From Pseudomonadota bacterium (lineage in GTDB: Bacteria; Pseudomonadota; Gammaproteobacteria; Xanthomonadales; Xanthomonadaceae), in NCBI GenBank assembly GCA_018242425.1, contig JAFEBX010000004.1, positions 223,032-287,031 of the forward strand: DNA of 64,000 nt, given 5' to 3'. The notes under the pieces are model-generated. The model was not told the origin of the DNA, ran no database searches, and was given only the letters and a program-made list of their open reading frames with translations. Shown piece by piece: positions 7,237 to 15,787 of this stretch (its first letter is position 1; every line of letters starts with the position of its first letter). Made by a program: the position numbers and the translations under genes.

Positions 7237-10689
<3,453 letters not shown>

Positions 10690-12091: not shown

Positions 12092-12164
12092 GTTGCGGTC
12101 TCCGGAGGGTTCTGGGTCGGGCCGCGTTTTTCATCGCGGCCCCGGCTCTTGTGAAGCTTGTCTT

Positions 12165-14069
12165 TCAGCCTGGTACGTGTTCCGTACGCAGCCTGTTCGC
12201 GAAGTCTTCGATCGACTGGCTCCCCAGGTCCTCGCCTCCGCGGGTACGCACTGCCACCCGGCCTTCCTCGCGTTCGCGGTCGCCCACGACCAGCAGGTAA
12301 GGCACGCGCTGCAGCGTGTGCTCGCGAATCTTATAGCCGATCTTCTCGTTCCGCAAATCGGAAACCACCCGGAAGCCTTGATCCGCAAGGGTTTTGCGGA
12401 CCTGGTCGGCATATTCGGCCTGGGCGTCGGTGATGTTCATGACCACCGCCTGGACCGGGGCCAGCCAGGCCGGGAACTGGCCGGCGTGGTGCTCGATCAG
12501 GATGCCGATGAAGCGCTCCATCGAGCCGACGATGGCCCGGTGCAGCATCACCGGATGCTTGCGCTGGCTGTGTTCGTCGACGTATTCGGCCCCGAGGCGG
12601 CTGGGCATCATGAAGTCGACCTGCATGGTCCCGAGCTGCCAGGTACGGCCAATGGCGTCCTTCAGGTGGTACTCGATCTTGGGACCGTAGAAGGCACCCT
12701 CGCCCGGCAGTTCCTGCCATTCGACCCCGGCACCGCGCAGGGCCGAACGCAGGGCGTCCTCGGCCTTGTCCCACGTCGCATCGTCGCCGAGACGGGAATC
12801 CGGGCGCAGCGCGATCTTGATCTGGATGTCGCTGAAGCCGAAGTCCGAATAGACCTTGAGCGCCTGCTGGTGGAAGTCGCGGACCTCCGATTCGACCTGG
12901 TCCTCGGTGCAGAAGATGTGGCCGTCGTCCTGGGTGAAGCCGCGCACGCGGAGGATGCCGTGCAGCGCGCCCGAGGGCTCGTTGCGGTGGCAGGCGCCGA
13001 ATTCGCCGTAGCGGATCGGCAGGTCGCGATAGCTGTGCAGGCCCTGGTTGAACACCTGGACATGACCCGGGCAGTTCATCGGCTTGAGCGCGTAGGTGTG
13101 CTTCTCCGACTCGGTGAAGAACATGTTGTCCTGGTAGTTGTCCCAGTGGCCGGACTTCTGCCATAGCGAGACGTCGAGAATCTGCGGGCAACGCACCTCG
13201 CCATAGCCGGTCTCGCGATAGACGCGGCGCATGTGCTGCTCGACGATCTGCCAGATCGCCCAGCCCTTGGGATGCCAGAACACCAGGCCCGGCCCTTCTT
13301 CCTGCAGGTGGAACAGGTCCTGGGCCTTGCCGATCTTGCGGTGGTCGCGCTTCTCGGCCTCTTCCAGCTGCGTCAGGTAGGCCTTGAGGTCCTTGTCGTT
13401 GAGCCAGGCGGTGCCGTAGACGCGCTGGAGCATCTCGTTGTTGGAGTCGCCGCGCCAGTAGGCGCCGGCGACCTTCATCAGCTTGAAGCCGCGCAGCTTG
13501 TCGGTGTTGGGCACGTGCGGGCCGCGGCAGAGGTCGGTGAATTCGCCCTGGCTATAGAGAGAGAGTTCCTGGTCGGCCGGGATCGATTCGATGATCTGCG
13601 CCTTGTATTCCTCGTTCTTGTCGCGGAAGAACTTCACCGCCTCGTCGCGCGACAGCACCGAACGCGCCACCGGCAGCGATTCGGCGACGATCTTCTTCAT
13701 CTCGGCCTCGATCTTCTCGAGGTCTTCCGGGGTGAACGGCGTCTTGCGCGCGAAGTCGTAGTAGAAGCCGTTGTCGATCACCGGGCCGATCGTGACCTGG
13801 GTGTCCGGGAACAGCCGCTGCGTGGCCTGCGCCAGCAGGTGCGCGGTGGAGTGGCGGAGGATGTCGAGCGCCTCCGGCGACTTGTCGGTGACGATGGCGA
13901 GTTCGGCATCGCGATCGATGCGGAAGCCGGTATCGACCAGCTGGCCGTCCACCTTGCCGGCGAGCGCGGCCTTGGCGAGGCCGGCGCCGATGGAGCCGGC
14001 GACTTCGGCGACAGTGACCGGATGGTCGAATTCACGGCGGGAGCCGTCGGGGAGCGTGATGTTGATCAT
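12165..14069 (-). CDS. thrS: Threonine-tRNA ligase
   Basis: [47 protein letters not shown]; start at ATG 14069. Confidence 0.98.
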
Positions 14070-14132
14070 GGGGAACGGATATTCAGTTGGAAATTTCGGC
14101 AATCGATCCGGAACGGGCGGGCCGGAAACGCA

Positions 14133-14155
14133 AACGGCGCCACGAGGGCGCCGTT
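14133..14155 (-). terminator. Terminator-like hairpin in the thrS leader
   Basis: AACGGCGCC-CTCGT-GGCGCCGTT followed by TGCGTTT on the minus strand. Confidence 0.65.
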
Positions 14156-14175
14156 GACCGGGACCTCGGGACGCT

Positions 14176-14202
14176 TCAGCAGTGGGCGGTGGTAGTGCTC
14201 AT
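14176..14202 (-). CDS. Putative thrS leader peptide MSTTTAHC
   Basis: ATG AGC ACT ACC ACC GCC CAC TGC TGA; three tandem Thr codons about 107 nt upstream of thrS; RBS is weak. Confidence 0.65.
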
Positions 14203-14323
14203 GTCGCACGCTCGGCCGGCGTCGGCGCAGGCCACCCGTGTCCGGTGGAGATACAGGAAAAATAGGGCCGGAACGGCTGCGGGTCAATGGGGAGGTTCCC
14301 TGCCAGCCGTCCGGCCCAATCCT

Positions 14324-15787
14324 TTATGGCGAGCGCGCCGCGAGTTTCCTGCGTTCAGGGAGGTGGTCCGGCCAGCCTCCGGCCAACGCCTTGTAGAGCG
14401 CGATCGCGCTGCCGACGCTGCGGGTGCGCGCATCCGCGAAGGCTTCCTCCGCCTGCAGTTGCGTGCGTTCCGCGTCCAGCACCTCGAACAGGTCGGTGGC
14501 GCCGGCGTGGTAGCGCAACCGCGCCAGTTGCGCCGCCTTCGCGCTGTCGAGCGCCGCCTGCTCCAGGTGCGCATCCTCGCTGCGTGCGCGGTCATGGCGA
14601 ACCAGCGCATTCTCGGTGTCTTCCAATGCCAGCAGCACGGTCTTCTCGTACTGCGCGAGCTGGCCCTCGGCATCGGCATCCGCAGCCTTGATGCGGGCAC
14701 GGACCCGGCCGACATCCAGGAAGGACCAGTCGATCCCCAGCGCGACCAGATGGGTTTCGCTGTCGCGCGAGAACAGGGCGCCGGTCCCGGCGGCCTGCGA
14801 ACCGATCAGTCCGCCGAGCGTGAAGCGCGGGAACAGGTCGGCGGTGGCCACGCCGATCCGCGCGGTGGCCGCGTGCAGGCGTTGTTCGGCAGCGACGATG
14901 TCGGGGCGATGGCGCAGCAGGTCACCCGGCGTCGACGGATCGATGCGCGCGGGCAGGACCGGCAACGCACCCGATGGCGTGAGTTCGGAAATCAACGCTT
15001 CCGGCATGTGCCCGGTCAATACCGCCAATCGATGCATCGACACCGCGACCTGCGCCTCCAGCGCCGGCACCCGCGATCGCGTCGCTTCCAGTTGCGCACG
15101 CGCACGCGAGGTGTCGAATTCCGTGCCGCGCCCGGCATTGAAGCGCGCCTCCACCAGCTTCAATGTCTGCGCCTGGTTATCGGCGTTCTGGCGCGCCACC
15201 CGCAGGCGTTCCTGCGATCCACGCAGCGTGACATAGGTGTTGGCGACTTCACCGACGATCGCTACCTGCAATGCCTGCAGGTCGGCGGCCGAAGCATGGA
15301 AGTCGGCACGCTGGGCTTCGACGCTGCGGCGAACGCGACCGAACAGGTCGAGCTCCCACGATGCCTGGGCACCGACGCTGTAGCTTTTGTAATCGCGATC
15401 CGCACGCGACACGCCAGGTTGCTGGTCGGCGCTGGCGCGATTGTCCGAAGCCTGCCCCTGCGCGGTGATCGTCGGCAATTGATCGAACCTGGCACCACGC
15501 AACAACGCATTGGCGCGATCGAGGTTGGCCAGCGCGATGCGCAGGTCGTGGTTGGCAGACAAGGCGTCATCAACCAGGCGCGTCAGTAGCGGATCGTTGA
15601 AGCCGCGCCAGAACTCGCTGTCGGCCGCACTCGTTGCATGACCAGCCGCCACGCCATCCGCAGGCGCCTCCGCCTGCACGAAACGATCAGGCACGCCAGC
15701 CATGTTCGGATAGACGTGGTTCGGTCCGACCGCGCAGGCCGCAAGCAGCGTCGACGCGATAGCGACGACAAGGGGACGCATCACCAT
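14324..15787 (-). CDS. NodT/TolC family outer membrane efflux lipoprotein (SmeX-like)
   Basis: Lipobox LLAAC, SWELDLFGRVRR, LLRHRPDI, LYKALAGGW. Confidence 0.92.
   Translation of the reverse strand: MVMRPLVVAIASTLLAACAVGPNHVYPNMAGVPDRFVQAEAPADGVAAGHATSAADSEFWRGFNDPLLTRLVDDALSANHDLRIALANLDRANALLRGARFDQLPTITAQGQASDNRASADQQPGVSRADRDYKSYSVGAQASWELDLFGRVRRSVEAQRADFHASAADLQALQVAIVGEVANTYVTLRGSQERLRVARQNADNQAQTLKLVEARFNAGRGTEFDTSRARAQLEATRSRVPALEAQVAVSMHRLAVLTGHMPEALISELTPSGALPVLPARIDPSTPGDLLRHRPDIVAAEQRLHAATARIGVATADLFPRFTLGGLIGSQAAGTGALFSRDSETHLVALGIDWSFLDVGRVRARIKAADADAEGQLAQYEKTVLLALEDTENALVRHDRARSEDAHLEQAALDSAKAAQLARLRYHAGATDLFEVLDAERTQLQAEEAFADARTRSVGSAIALYKALAGGWPDHLPERRKLAARSP

Follow-up and report, generated by a model that had tools for sequence, protein, structure and literature searches.

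A candidate threonine-responsive leader-peptide attenuator upstream of thrS in the Xanthomonadales

The thrS locus and its leader

We analysed the region upstream of thrS, the threonyl-tRNA synthetase (ThrRS) gene, in a 64,000-nt stretch of contig JAFEBX010000004.1 from a member of the Xanthomonadaceae; this whole stretch is referred to as the window, and all coordinates are those of the window. The thrS gene is preceded by a short leader, all features of which lie on the minus strand, and which is likely to act as a Thr-sensing, ribosome-mediated (leader-peptide) transcription attenuator. The gene itself (12165–14069, minus strand) starts at 14069 and encodes a protein of 634 aa with TGS, tRNA_SAD, tRNA-synt_2b (the class II synthetase core) and HGTP_anticodon domains. 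It is followed on its 3' side by infC, rpmI, rplT and pheS, and an outer-membrane efflux (OEP) gene lies 5' of the leader.

The centre of the leader is a mini-open reading frame (mini-ORF; 14176–14202) for the peptide MSTTTAHC, with its AUG at 14202–14200 and a UGA stop codon at 14178–14176 (complete leader peptides are written here up to the stop). Its codons are AUG AGC ACU ACC ACC GCC CAC UGC UGA, of which the putative regulatory Thr codons ACU ACC ACC occupy positions 3–5 (14188–14196). A segment beginning 2 nt past the stop, GCGUCCCGAGG (14164–14174), is the candidate 5' strand of an antiterminator and is referred to below as the box. Further downstream lies a terminator hairpin of 9 bp, AACGGCGCC-CUCGU-GGCGCCGUU (14133–14155), with the sequence UGCGUUUCC on its 3' side and a U-rich tract, UUUGCGUUUCC (14124–14134). 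The box can pair at 10 of 11 positions, with one G:U pair and one C.U mismatch, with CCUCGUGGCGC (14147–14137), which comprises the loop and 3' arm of the hairpin. The mini-ORF with three tandem Thr codons, the hairpin and the 10-of-11 pairing had all been put forward in the original prediction, and each is present at the positions given there. The U-rich tract that it described does follow the hairpin, although it is interrupted and weaker than the U6–8 of most relatives.

On the 5' side the AUG is abutted by an 11-nt linker, GAGCGUGCGAC (14203–14213), which is preceded by a hairpin, GGCCUGCG-CCGA-CGCCGGCC (14214–14233; the 5' hairpin), and by a Shine-Dalgarno-like box, GGGUGG (14232–14237; family consensus AGG(U/A)GG), the last two G residues of which overlap the base of the hairpin. 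The sole promoter-like site in 13900–14500 is a sigma-70-like sequence, TTGACC-17-TATTTT (14259–14287; −35 at 14287–14282, −10 at 14264–14259; 0.0 expected in shuffles), and the transcript start is predicted to lie a few nucleotides downstream of the −10 element. Relatives that have no tRNA-Val gene upstream carry GTTGACTTG-N15-AACNAT at the promoter position, as judged by eye. Between the terminator and thrS the region is variable among relatives, differing in sequence and ranging from 18 to 223 nt in length. No recognisable Shine-Dalgarno sequence is found within 17 nt of the thrS AUG in 21 of 29 genera, and a C-rich stretch (...CCC-AUG) typically precedes this AUG (14070–14089, minus strand, in the window, and the same position in L003–L031).

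Conservation of the leader in the order

A conserved leader precedes thrS, as a single copy, in 28 of the 30 genera sampled from the host's family. The conserved block reads ...AGGUGGCC-(hairpin)-GGCCGAGCGUGCGAC-AUG-AGC-ACU-ACC..., lies 95–230 nt upstream of thrS and is followed by an intrinsic terminator; we refer to leaders with this motif as class I. The alignment of thrS upstream regions suggested in the original prediction finds both the Thr codons and the stems conserved. An exact-pattern scan with GYGTGYGACATGNNNACTACC of one genome per species, ∼186,000 species genomes in all, gave at least 119 loci. Among the 119 matches listed, 114 have a ThrRS N-terminus encoded 94–293 nt downstream, in three (L038, L081 and L120) thrS would be situated close to the limit of the extracted segment or outside it, and two are chance matches, in a cyanobacterial metagenome-assembled genome (MAG) and in Rhodococcus. 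Chance matches aside, the named hosts among the matches listed all belong to the Xanthomonadales/Lysobacterales, with the genera Xanthomonas, Stenotrophomonas, Lysobacter, Luteimonas, Thermomonas, Arenimonas, Pseudoxanthomonas, Rhodanobacter, Dyella and Luteibacter; the leader closest to that of the window among these matches is from a Lysobacter sp. MAG (L117). When the order was sampled with a covariance model of the 5' block (R1), 49 of 201 genomes contained a copy, always a single one, and these genomes belong to families f1 and f12 and to parts of f3 and f11.

The mini-ORF is short in all leaders compared. Among 126 distinct leaders it has eight codons in 100, seven in 13, six in 11 and nine in 2, so that it never exceeds nine codons and the stop falls at codon 7–10 in every case; the stop is UGA in 115, UAG in nine and UAA in two. 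Frames other than that of the ORF are mostly open; among the thrS-anchored leaders, reading in the +2 frame usually meets no stop for 14 to more than 60 codons, or none before the end, and there is one exception. The AUG is invariant in the leaders compared, and codon 2 varies freely, including a change from Ser AGC to UCC. In codons 5–8 the amino acids vary while the third positions stay G or C (entropy 0.82, versus 1.37 and 1.35 at the first and second positions), a periodicity typical of coding sequence at a genomic G+C content of 65%. In the thrS-anchored sample, which is unbiased, codon 3 is ACU in 28 of 28 leaders and codon 4 is ACC in 25 of 28, and a third Thr codon is common among leaders. 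ACU accounts for 3.5% of Thr codon usage in the window's genome, compared with 58.5% for ACC and 35% for ACG, and a single tRNA-Thr(GGU) gene in this genome reads both ACU and ACC. By its pattern of conservation the mini-ORF thus behaves as a translated sequence, and it is presumably translated.

In an alignment of the 5' block from 44 diverse sequences (A1) the AGG of the Shine-Dalgarno-like box is nearly invariant; the variants AGGAGG, AGGUGA and AGGAAC show no covariation with the Thr codons, which is the behaviour of a Shine-Dalgarno sequence and not of a pairing partner of these codons. The 5' hairpin is supported by covariation: 82.8% of cells are paired, versus 66.8% in shuffles (0 of 500 as high), compensatory changes occur at all eight pairs, and the covariation score is 0.43 versus 0.20, while slid controls reach at most 0.14 with 22–42% paired. 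The loop of this hairpin is variable in A1. The linker is essentially invariant, and its positions G-G-U-G-x-G-A-C are without exception in the 44 diverse sequences and in the thrS-anchored family sample. At two loci, L167 (family f11) and L012, the box stands 4–5 nt before the AUG with no hairpin between them (GAGGUGGCAC-AUG and GAGGUGCGAC-AUG), from which we infer that the box is the Shine-Dalgarno sequence of the mini-ORF and that the class I hairpin bridges it to the AUG. The ribosome binding site, which had been called weak, is better described as a conserved AGG(U/A)-type box lying further upstream and set off by a covarying hairpin and an 11-nt linker.

Two other pairings that involve the 5' block were considered and rejected. 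Pairing of GGUGG in the Shine-Dalgarno-like box with CUACC in the Thr codons is not maintained, as the 5' side varies (AGGAAC, AGGACG, AGGUCU) and ACUACC never does. A hairpin GUGC-GACAUGA-GCAC that would present the AUG is likewise discounted, as codon 2 (AGC, UCC, GAC, GCA, AGG, AAG or GAG) varies without compensation.

We note that in many genera a tRNA-Val(GAC) gene lies directly upstream of the thrS leader (L008, L012, L015–L019, L022, L025 and L029) and may share a transcript with it, whereas the window's genome carries its tRNA-Val genes on different contigs (C8 and C12). This tRNA is also the best tRNA match of the leader core, as it shares with the invariant core GACAUGAGCACUACC the hexamer GACAUG and a 10-mer, GAGCACUACC, that has three copies in the genome. 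The likeness may be a coincidence or a trace of the leader's origin.

Families of the order without the class I motif have an unrelated short Thr-rich ORF, followed by an intrinsic terminator, before thrS. The peptides are MRTTTMAIH in family f11, MNVSFRTTT and METIFTTVT in f8, MCQQATTTTTP in f5, MRYTRTTSDAPS in f10, and MNTWTRTIG and MKFTRRTPG in f7. Such an ORF and terminator were not seen in L168 (f1), L169 (f4), L170 or L179 (f6), and were found in none of 24 thrS leaders sampled from other gammaproteobacterial orders. A further recurrent leader, which we refer to as class II, is present in families f1, f2 and f3, with the peptides MTRTGTHI, MTRTGTFD, MTRTDSPA and MTRTGYP among the loci L161, L164, L166 and L022 (in L022 at ∼1330–1500 after reverse complementation). 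It consists of a purine box (GAGAGA/AGGAG), a hairpin CGUAGUUCGAACGAACACG, a linker AUCACC, the ORF beginning AUG-ACG-CGA-ACC (MTRTG...) and a terminator, and its hairpin covaries from GUUC/GAAC to GUCC/GGAC in L166. By eye the layout (purine box, hairpin, linker, AUG) is that of class I with a different sequence.

Terminator, antiterminator and the predicted switch

A perfect-stem terminator with a T-rich tail is present in 134 of 142 orthologous leaders, and the segment that follows the stop codon tracks the terminator loop as the latter changes, giving the combinations CGAGG/CCUCG, CCAGG/CCUGG, CGAAGC/GCUUCG, GCCAC/GUGGC and CCCAAG/CUUGGG. To quantify this pairing we limited the target to the loop and its flanks, with 2 nt from the end of the 5' arm and 3 nt of the 3' arm. 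The energy is −10.54 kcal/mol for cognate pairing versus −9.13 kcal/mol for permuted partners over all sequences (z −8.2, 0 of 10,000 permutations), and the effect persists with one sequence for each of 52 loop classes (z −4.7, 0 of 10,000). The box and loop thus covary, as the original prediction had anticipated for the pairing. When the spacer was compared with the whole loop and 3' arm, the energies were −11.0 kcal/mol for cognate and −10.3 kcal/mol for non-cognate pairs (z −0.2), which is not significant because nearly all arms are the palindrome GGCGCC.

In 123 of the 126 leaders the box begins 1–13 nt 3' of the stop. The median position of its first paired nucleotide is +32 relative to the AUG, with no difference between six-, seven- and eight-codon ORFs, and this is 20 nt past codon 4; measured from the stop, the median distances are 5, 8 and 11 nt for eight-, seven- and six-codon ORFs, respectively. 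For the window's leader, both conformers were computed with RNAfold, as had been proposed, and the minimum free energy (MFE) fold of 14178–14133 is the antiterminator at −21.9 kcal/mol, with the terminator at approximately −16.5 to −18.7 kcal/mol.

We simulated the switch in the 126 leaders, taking as readout the mean fraction of the terminator stem that is formed in the MFE fold. When the RNA from the stop codon to the 3' arm is folded free, this fraction is 0.24 for native sequences versus 0.67 with a shuffled spacer, and the terminator is lost in 95 of the 126. Masking the stop and 10 nt raises the native value to 0.66, and thus the capacity to disrupt the terminator lies in nucleotides that a terminating ribosome would cover. 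With the ORF included and the 5' hairpin pre-formed, the fraction is 0.29 (shuffled spacer, 0.62) without a ribosome, 0.28 (shuffled, 0.70; p 5e-16) with a ribosome whose A site is at Thr codon 4, and 0.71 (shuffled, 0.76; not significant) with a ribosome at the stop; the stalled and stop states differ with p 1e-11. The window's own leader gives 0 without a ribosome, 0 when stalled and 1.0 at the stop. The two structures had been described as mutually exclusive, and both the simulated folds and the box-loop covariation are in accord with this.

Taken with the Thr-rich ORFs of divergent families, these computational results support the mechanism put forward in the original prediction, and we consider it probable that the leader is a threonine-sensing, leader-peptide attenuator of thrS. 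From the observed conservation and covariation and the predicted alternative folds, we infer a course of events in which translation of the ORF, stalling and termination would be coupled into a physiological response. Transcription would start ∼50 nt upstream of the mini-ORF, and a ribosome would load through the AGGUGG-type Shine-Dalgarno box, brought near the AUG by the stable 5' hairpin. When charged Thr-tRNA(GGU) is plentiful, the ribosome would reach the stop codon and cover the first nucleotides of the box, such that the terminator at 14155–14133 folds and halts transcription ahead of thrS. Under a shortage of charged tRNA-Thr, stalling would occur at the ACU/ACC codons (codons 3–5), leaving the ribosome ∼20 nt short of the box. 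The exposed box could then capture the terminator strands during their emergence, by pairing with the loop, the 3' arm and the end of the 5' arm, and with the terminator blocked RNA polymerase would read into thrS-infC-rpmI-rplT.

Several observations weigh against this interpretation. Each leader has just two or three Thr codons, and leader-peptide logic alone does not account for the invariance of the ACU-ACC wobble bases or of the linker. Folds of the single sequence exceed shuffles slightly or not at all (z −0.2 to −2.4), those of longer segments not at all (z −0.2 to +0.25), and a simple terminator scan did not call the window's hairpin because its U tract is interrupted; the case from the single sequence is weak, and significance comes only from the comparative data. 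We found no conserved upstream partner for the box that could serve as a 'region 1' anti-antiterminator. In equilibrium folds that leave the 46 nt of the 5' block free, the switch is much weaker, with a terminator fraction of 0.52 in the stalled state versus 0.67 at the stop (p 0.005), and with the 5' block included and no ribosome it is 0.54; in these circumstances the window's leader forms the terminator in all states, because the hairpin loop GACGC can pair with the box. We consider such folds less realistic than those in which the covarying 5' hairpin is pre-formed.

Two groups of relatives also fit poorly. The 11 six-codon leaders, mostly of Pseudoxanthomonas, never form the terminator in silico and show no switch; their box is at least 11 nt past the stop, out of reach of a ribosome that terminates there. 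This clade may be regulated differently, or else simple masking is not a complete model. Loci with the six-codon ORFs MSTTTA and MSTTSA include L050, L064, L067, L078, L112 and L141. Xanthomonas sensu stricto keeps the peptide MSTTTAH(R/C), but has an imperfect terminator stem and a poor U tract, and degenerate terminators are seen at six Xanthomonas loci (L058, L060, L099, L106, L140 and L150). In L162, from a 2.0-Mb genome of the family, the ORF is degenerate (MSTSMNHRHLHG) and the hairpin is without a U tract. Attenuation may have been weakened or lost in the lineages of Xanthomonas sensu stricto and L162.

Alternative explanations and relation to known systems

The alternative that survives best is control by a protein, either alone or layered on the leader peptide, in which the 5' block would bind a trans-acting protein, most obviously ThrRS. 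The bound protein would decide whether a ribosome can load on the leader, and hence whether transcription terminates, so that thrS would be autoregulated. In E. coli it is established that ThrRS controls its own synthesis by way of its mRNA, a case also mentioned in PMC2965389. The linker and the ACU-ACC wobble positions show much stronger nucleotide-level conservation than a leader peptide requires, the linker holds CGU, one tRNA-Thr anticodon, and class II leaders keep the class I layout with a different sequence (by eye). We nonetheless regard this explanation as unlikely. The 5' block has no detectable similarity to any tRNA-Thr, its best tRNA match being tRNA-Val(GAC), and mimicry of tRNA-Thr by the linker was rejected on this ground; the variable loop of the 5' hairpin argues that it is not an anticodon mimic; and L167 and L012 are without the hairpin yet retain the ORF and terminator. 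Other families share the Thr codons and not the 5' block, and the invariant ACU-ACC is also found in beta-proteobacterial leaders that have different 5' regions. The specific proposal that the 5' block is a docking site for a trans-acting factor, most plausibly ThrRS, that gates leader-ribosome loading is quite unlikely in our estimate. If it were true, one leader would integrate enzyme level (through autoregulation) and tRNA-Thr charging (through stalling) on a single terminator, an undescribed combination of the logic of the E. coli operator with that of an attenuator.

It is decidedly improbable that the leader is a constitutive element that senses no amino acid, whether a partial terminator, an insulator or a processing or stability structure, with an incidental mini-ORF. 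Such an element would separate thrS from the upstream tRNA-Val or OEP gene, and since many relatives have tRNA-Val(GAC) directly upstream, a terminator after the tRNA is to be expected; the terminator, however, sits after the conserved ORF and not directly after the tRNA. The weak U tract of the window, the many chance pairings that G+C-rich sequence allows and the non-significant whole-arm energy test would suit this explanation, but it is difficult to reconcile with the significant box-loop covariation, with an AUG, ACU-ACC and stop position conserved in 126 of 126 leaders, with the independent Thr-rich ORFs of other families and with an element that is thrS-specific and single-copy.

A T-box-like riboswitch, in which uncharged tRNA-Thr would bind an ACU/ACC 'specifier' and a UGGN-like sequence and bring about antitermination without translation, is barely credible and was rejected. 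In its favour are a Thr codon close to a structured element and a resemblance of AGGUGGCC (UGGN-like) to the T-box core AGGGUGGNACCGCG, the likeness of AGGUGGCCCGCG being superficial. Against it, an Rfam search of 13800–14500 with E up to 10 gave no T-box or other relevant match, and UGG varies (UGA, ACG, AAC, UAA and UCU) whereas AGG is conserved. There is no Stem I, the supposed T-box sequence precedes the codon and is distant from the terminator, and the conserved in-frame stop is left unaccounted for.

Other parts of the operon also carry potential RNA structures. A hairpin, GCCGGGGCCGCG-AUGAAAAA-CGCGGCCCGAC, lies directly past the thrS stop (12100–12145, minus strand), and no AUG is present around the position where infC would be expected to begin, which fits an unusual, AUU-type start; infC is known for such a start. 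A terminator-like hairpin, GGGGAAGG-GCGCGAGU-CCUUCCCC, followed by AUUUUCAUUU (10654–10687, minus strand), is situated between rplT and pheS, ∼35 nt 5' of the pheS AUG (10619), and no Phe-codon leader ORF of the E. coli pheM type was seen near it.

If the leader-peptide interpretation is correct, the control of thrS in an order that includes Xanthomonas, Stenotrophomonas and Lysobacter is probably settled as a compact leader-peptide attenuator, and would be neither the translational operator of E. coli nor a T-box. It would be an unusually small and clean example, with eight codons, two or three sensing codons and a single box complementary to the terminator loop, and its invariant rare codon and hairpin-bridged Shine-Dalgarno sequence are possible design principles. 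The Rfam search of 13800–14500 at E up to 10 also gave no match to Thr_leader (RF00506), and full-text literature searches found no description of a thrS attenuator in Xanthomonadales. The element is absent from Rfam and from genome annotation, a gap that alignment A1 and covariance model R1 could fill. We view the outcome as a solid annotation and a candidate Rfam family, not as a new principle; attenuation had been presented in the original prediction as a different solution for thrS, and this overstates its novelty, as earlier work had catalogued thrS peptide leaders in beta-proteobacteria (PMC2965389) and put one forward in Streptomyces lividans (PMC8079986).

The E. coli thrS operator, in which ThrRS binds tRNA-Thr-like anticodon arms next to the thrS Shine-Dalgarno sequence, concerns the same gene and serves the same physiological goal. 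In the leader described here, in contrast, the conserved element lies 130 nt upstream and is followed by a terminator, the region at the thrS AUG is not conserved and mostly is without a Shine-Dalgarno sequence, and we found neither a tRNA-Thr-like arm of the E. coli type nor similarity to tRNA-Thr. The arrangement of the 5' block recalls the split Shine-Dalgarno sites of phage T4 genes 38 and 25, where a hairpin between the Shine-Dalgarno sequence and the AUG shortens the effective spacing, although here the effective spacing would still be ∼11 nt, and the T4 examples offer no reason for a linker that is itself invariant.

Among attenuators, E. coli pheM-pheST is the established precedent for a synthetase gene, and there, as in trpL, thrL and hisL and as proposed here, a ribosome stalled at cognate codons chooses between antiterminator and terminator. 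The leader differs from these classical examples in having only two or three regulatory codons in an ORF of 6–9 codons, in lacking a recognisable conserved region 1:2 (pause or anti-antiterminator) hairpin, and in the antiterminator strand, whose partner is the terminator's loop and 3' arm and not the 5' arm alone. Besides the established pheST, attenuators of the synthetase genes trpS and leuS have been predicted in Streptomyces (PMC1262725). In S. lividans, thrL (MKRVRPFLETTPGFVPAR), a two-Thr leader before thrS, was proposed on the basis of RNA-seq to be an attenuator (PMC8079986); it resembles the leader described here in encoding a two-Thr peptide upstream of thrS, but its sequence is unrelated, it is leaderless, it has 18 codons and no clear intrinsic terminator was found, and it belongs to another phylum.

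The closest parallels are beta-proteobacterial. Naville and Gautheret (2010; Genome Biol 11:R97, PMC2965389) list 69 predicted 5' terminators in the thrS family (Tables S1/S2), of which 25 are annotated as T-box and 15 as Peptide leader; the latter annotation is a label in the supplement, with no mechanism or experiment. All peptide-leader rows of their Table S2 are beta-proteobacteria, of the genera Burkholderia, Ralstonia, Cupriavidus, Acidovorax, Verminephrobacter, Methylibium and Azoarcus. The table has no Xanthomonadales thrS row, though Xanthomonas and Xylella were in the genome set, and this is plausibly a consequence of the weak Xanthomonas terminators. The ORFs that we read from their sequences, MTPRTT..., MIQAPRTTTASERQ, MSKTTRTTTAG and MFRTTTEAGN, share a core CGA-ACU-ACN and, like those of Xanthomonadales, are short, contain Thr codons and are followed by an intrinsic terminator before thrS. 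The codon core of Ralstonia is CGA-ACU-ACC-ACC-GCU, compared with AGC-ACU-ACC-ACC-GCC in the window, and the class II ORF of Xanthomonadales (AUG-ACG-CGA-ACC) resembles the MTPRTT leaders. In Burkholderia and Cupriavidus UAG-UCGAGG occurs right after the stop and the loop contains CCUCGA, which is the same box-loop design as here. Class I leaders differ in their shorter ORF (6–9 codons), in having Thr at codons 3–4 and in having no Pro-Arg before the Thr run, and the 5' block of Shine-Dalgarno sequence, hairpin and invariant linker is specific to Xanthomonadales relative to the beta-proteobacterial leaders. On the basis of these sequence likenesses, the thrS leaders of Xanthomonadales and beta-proteobacteria are probably homologous.

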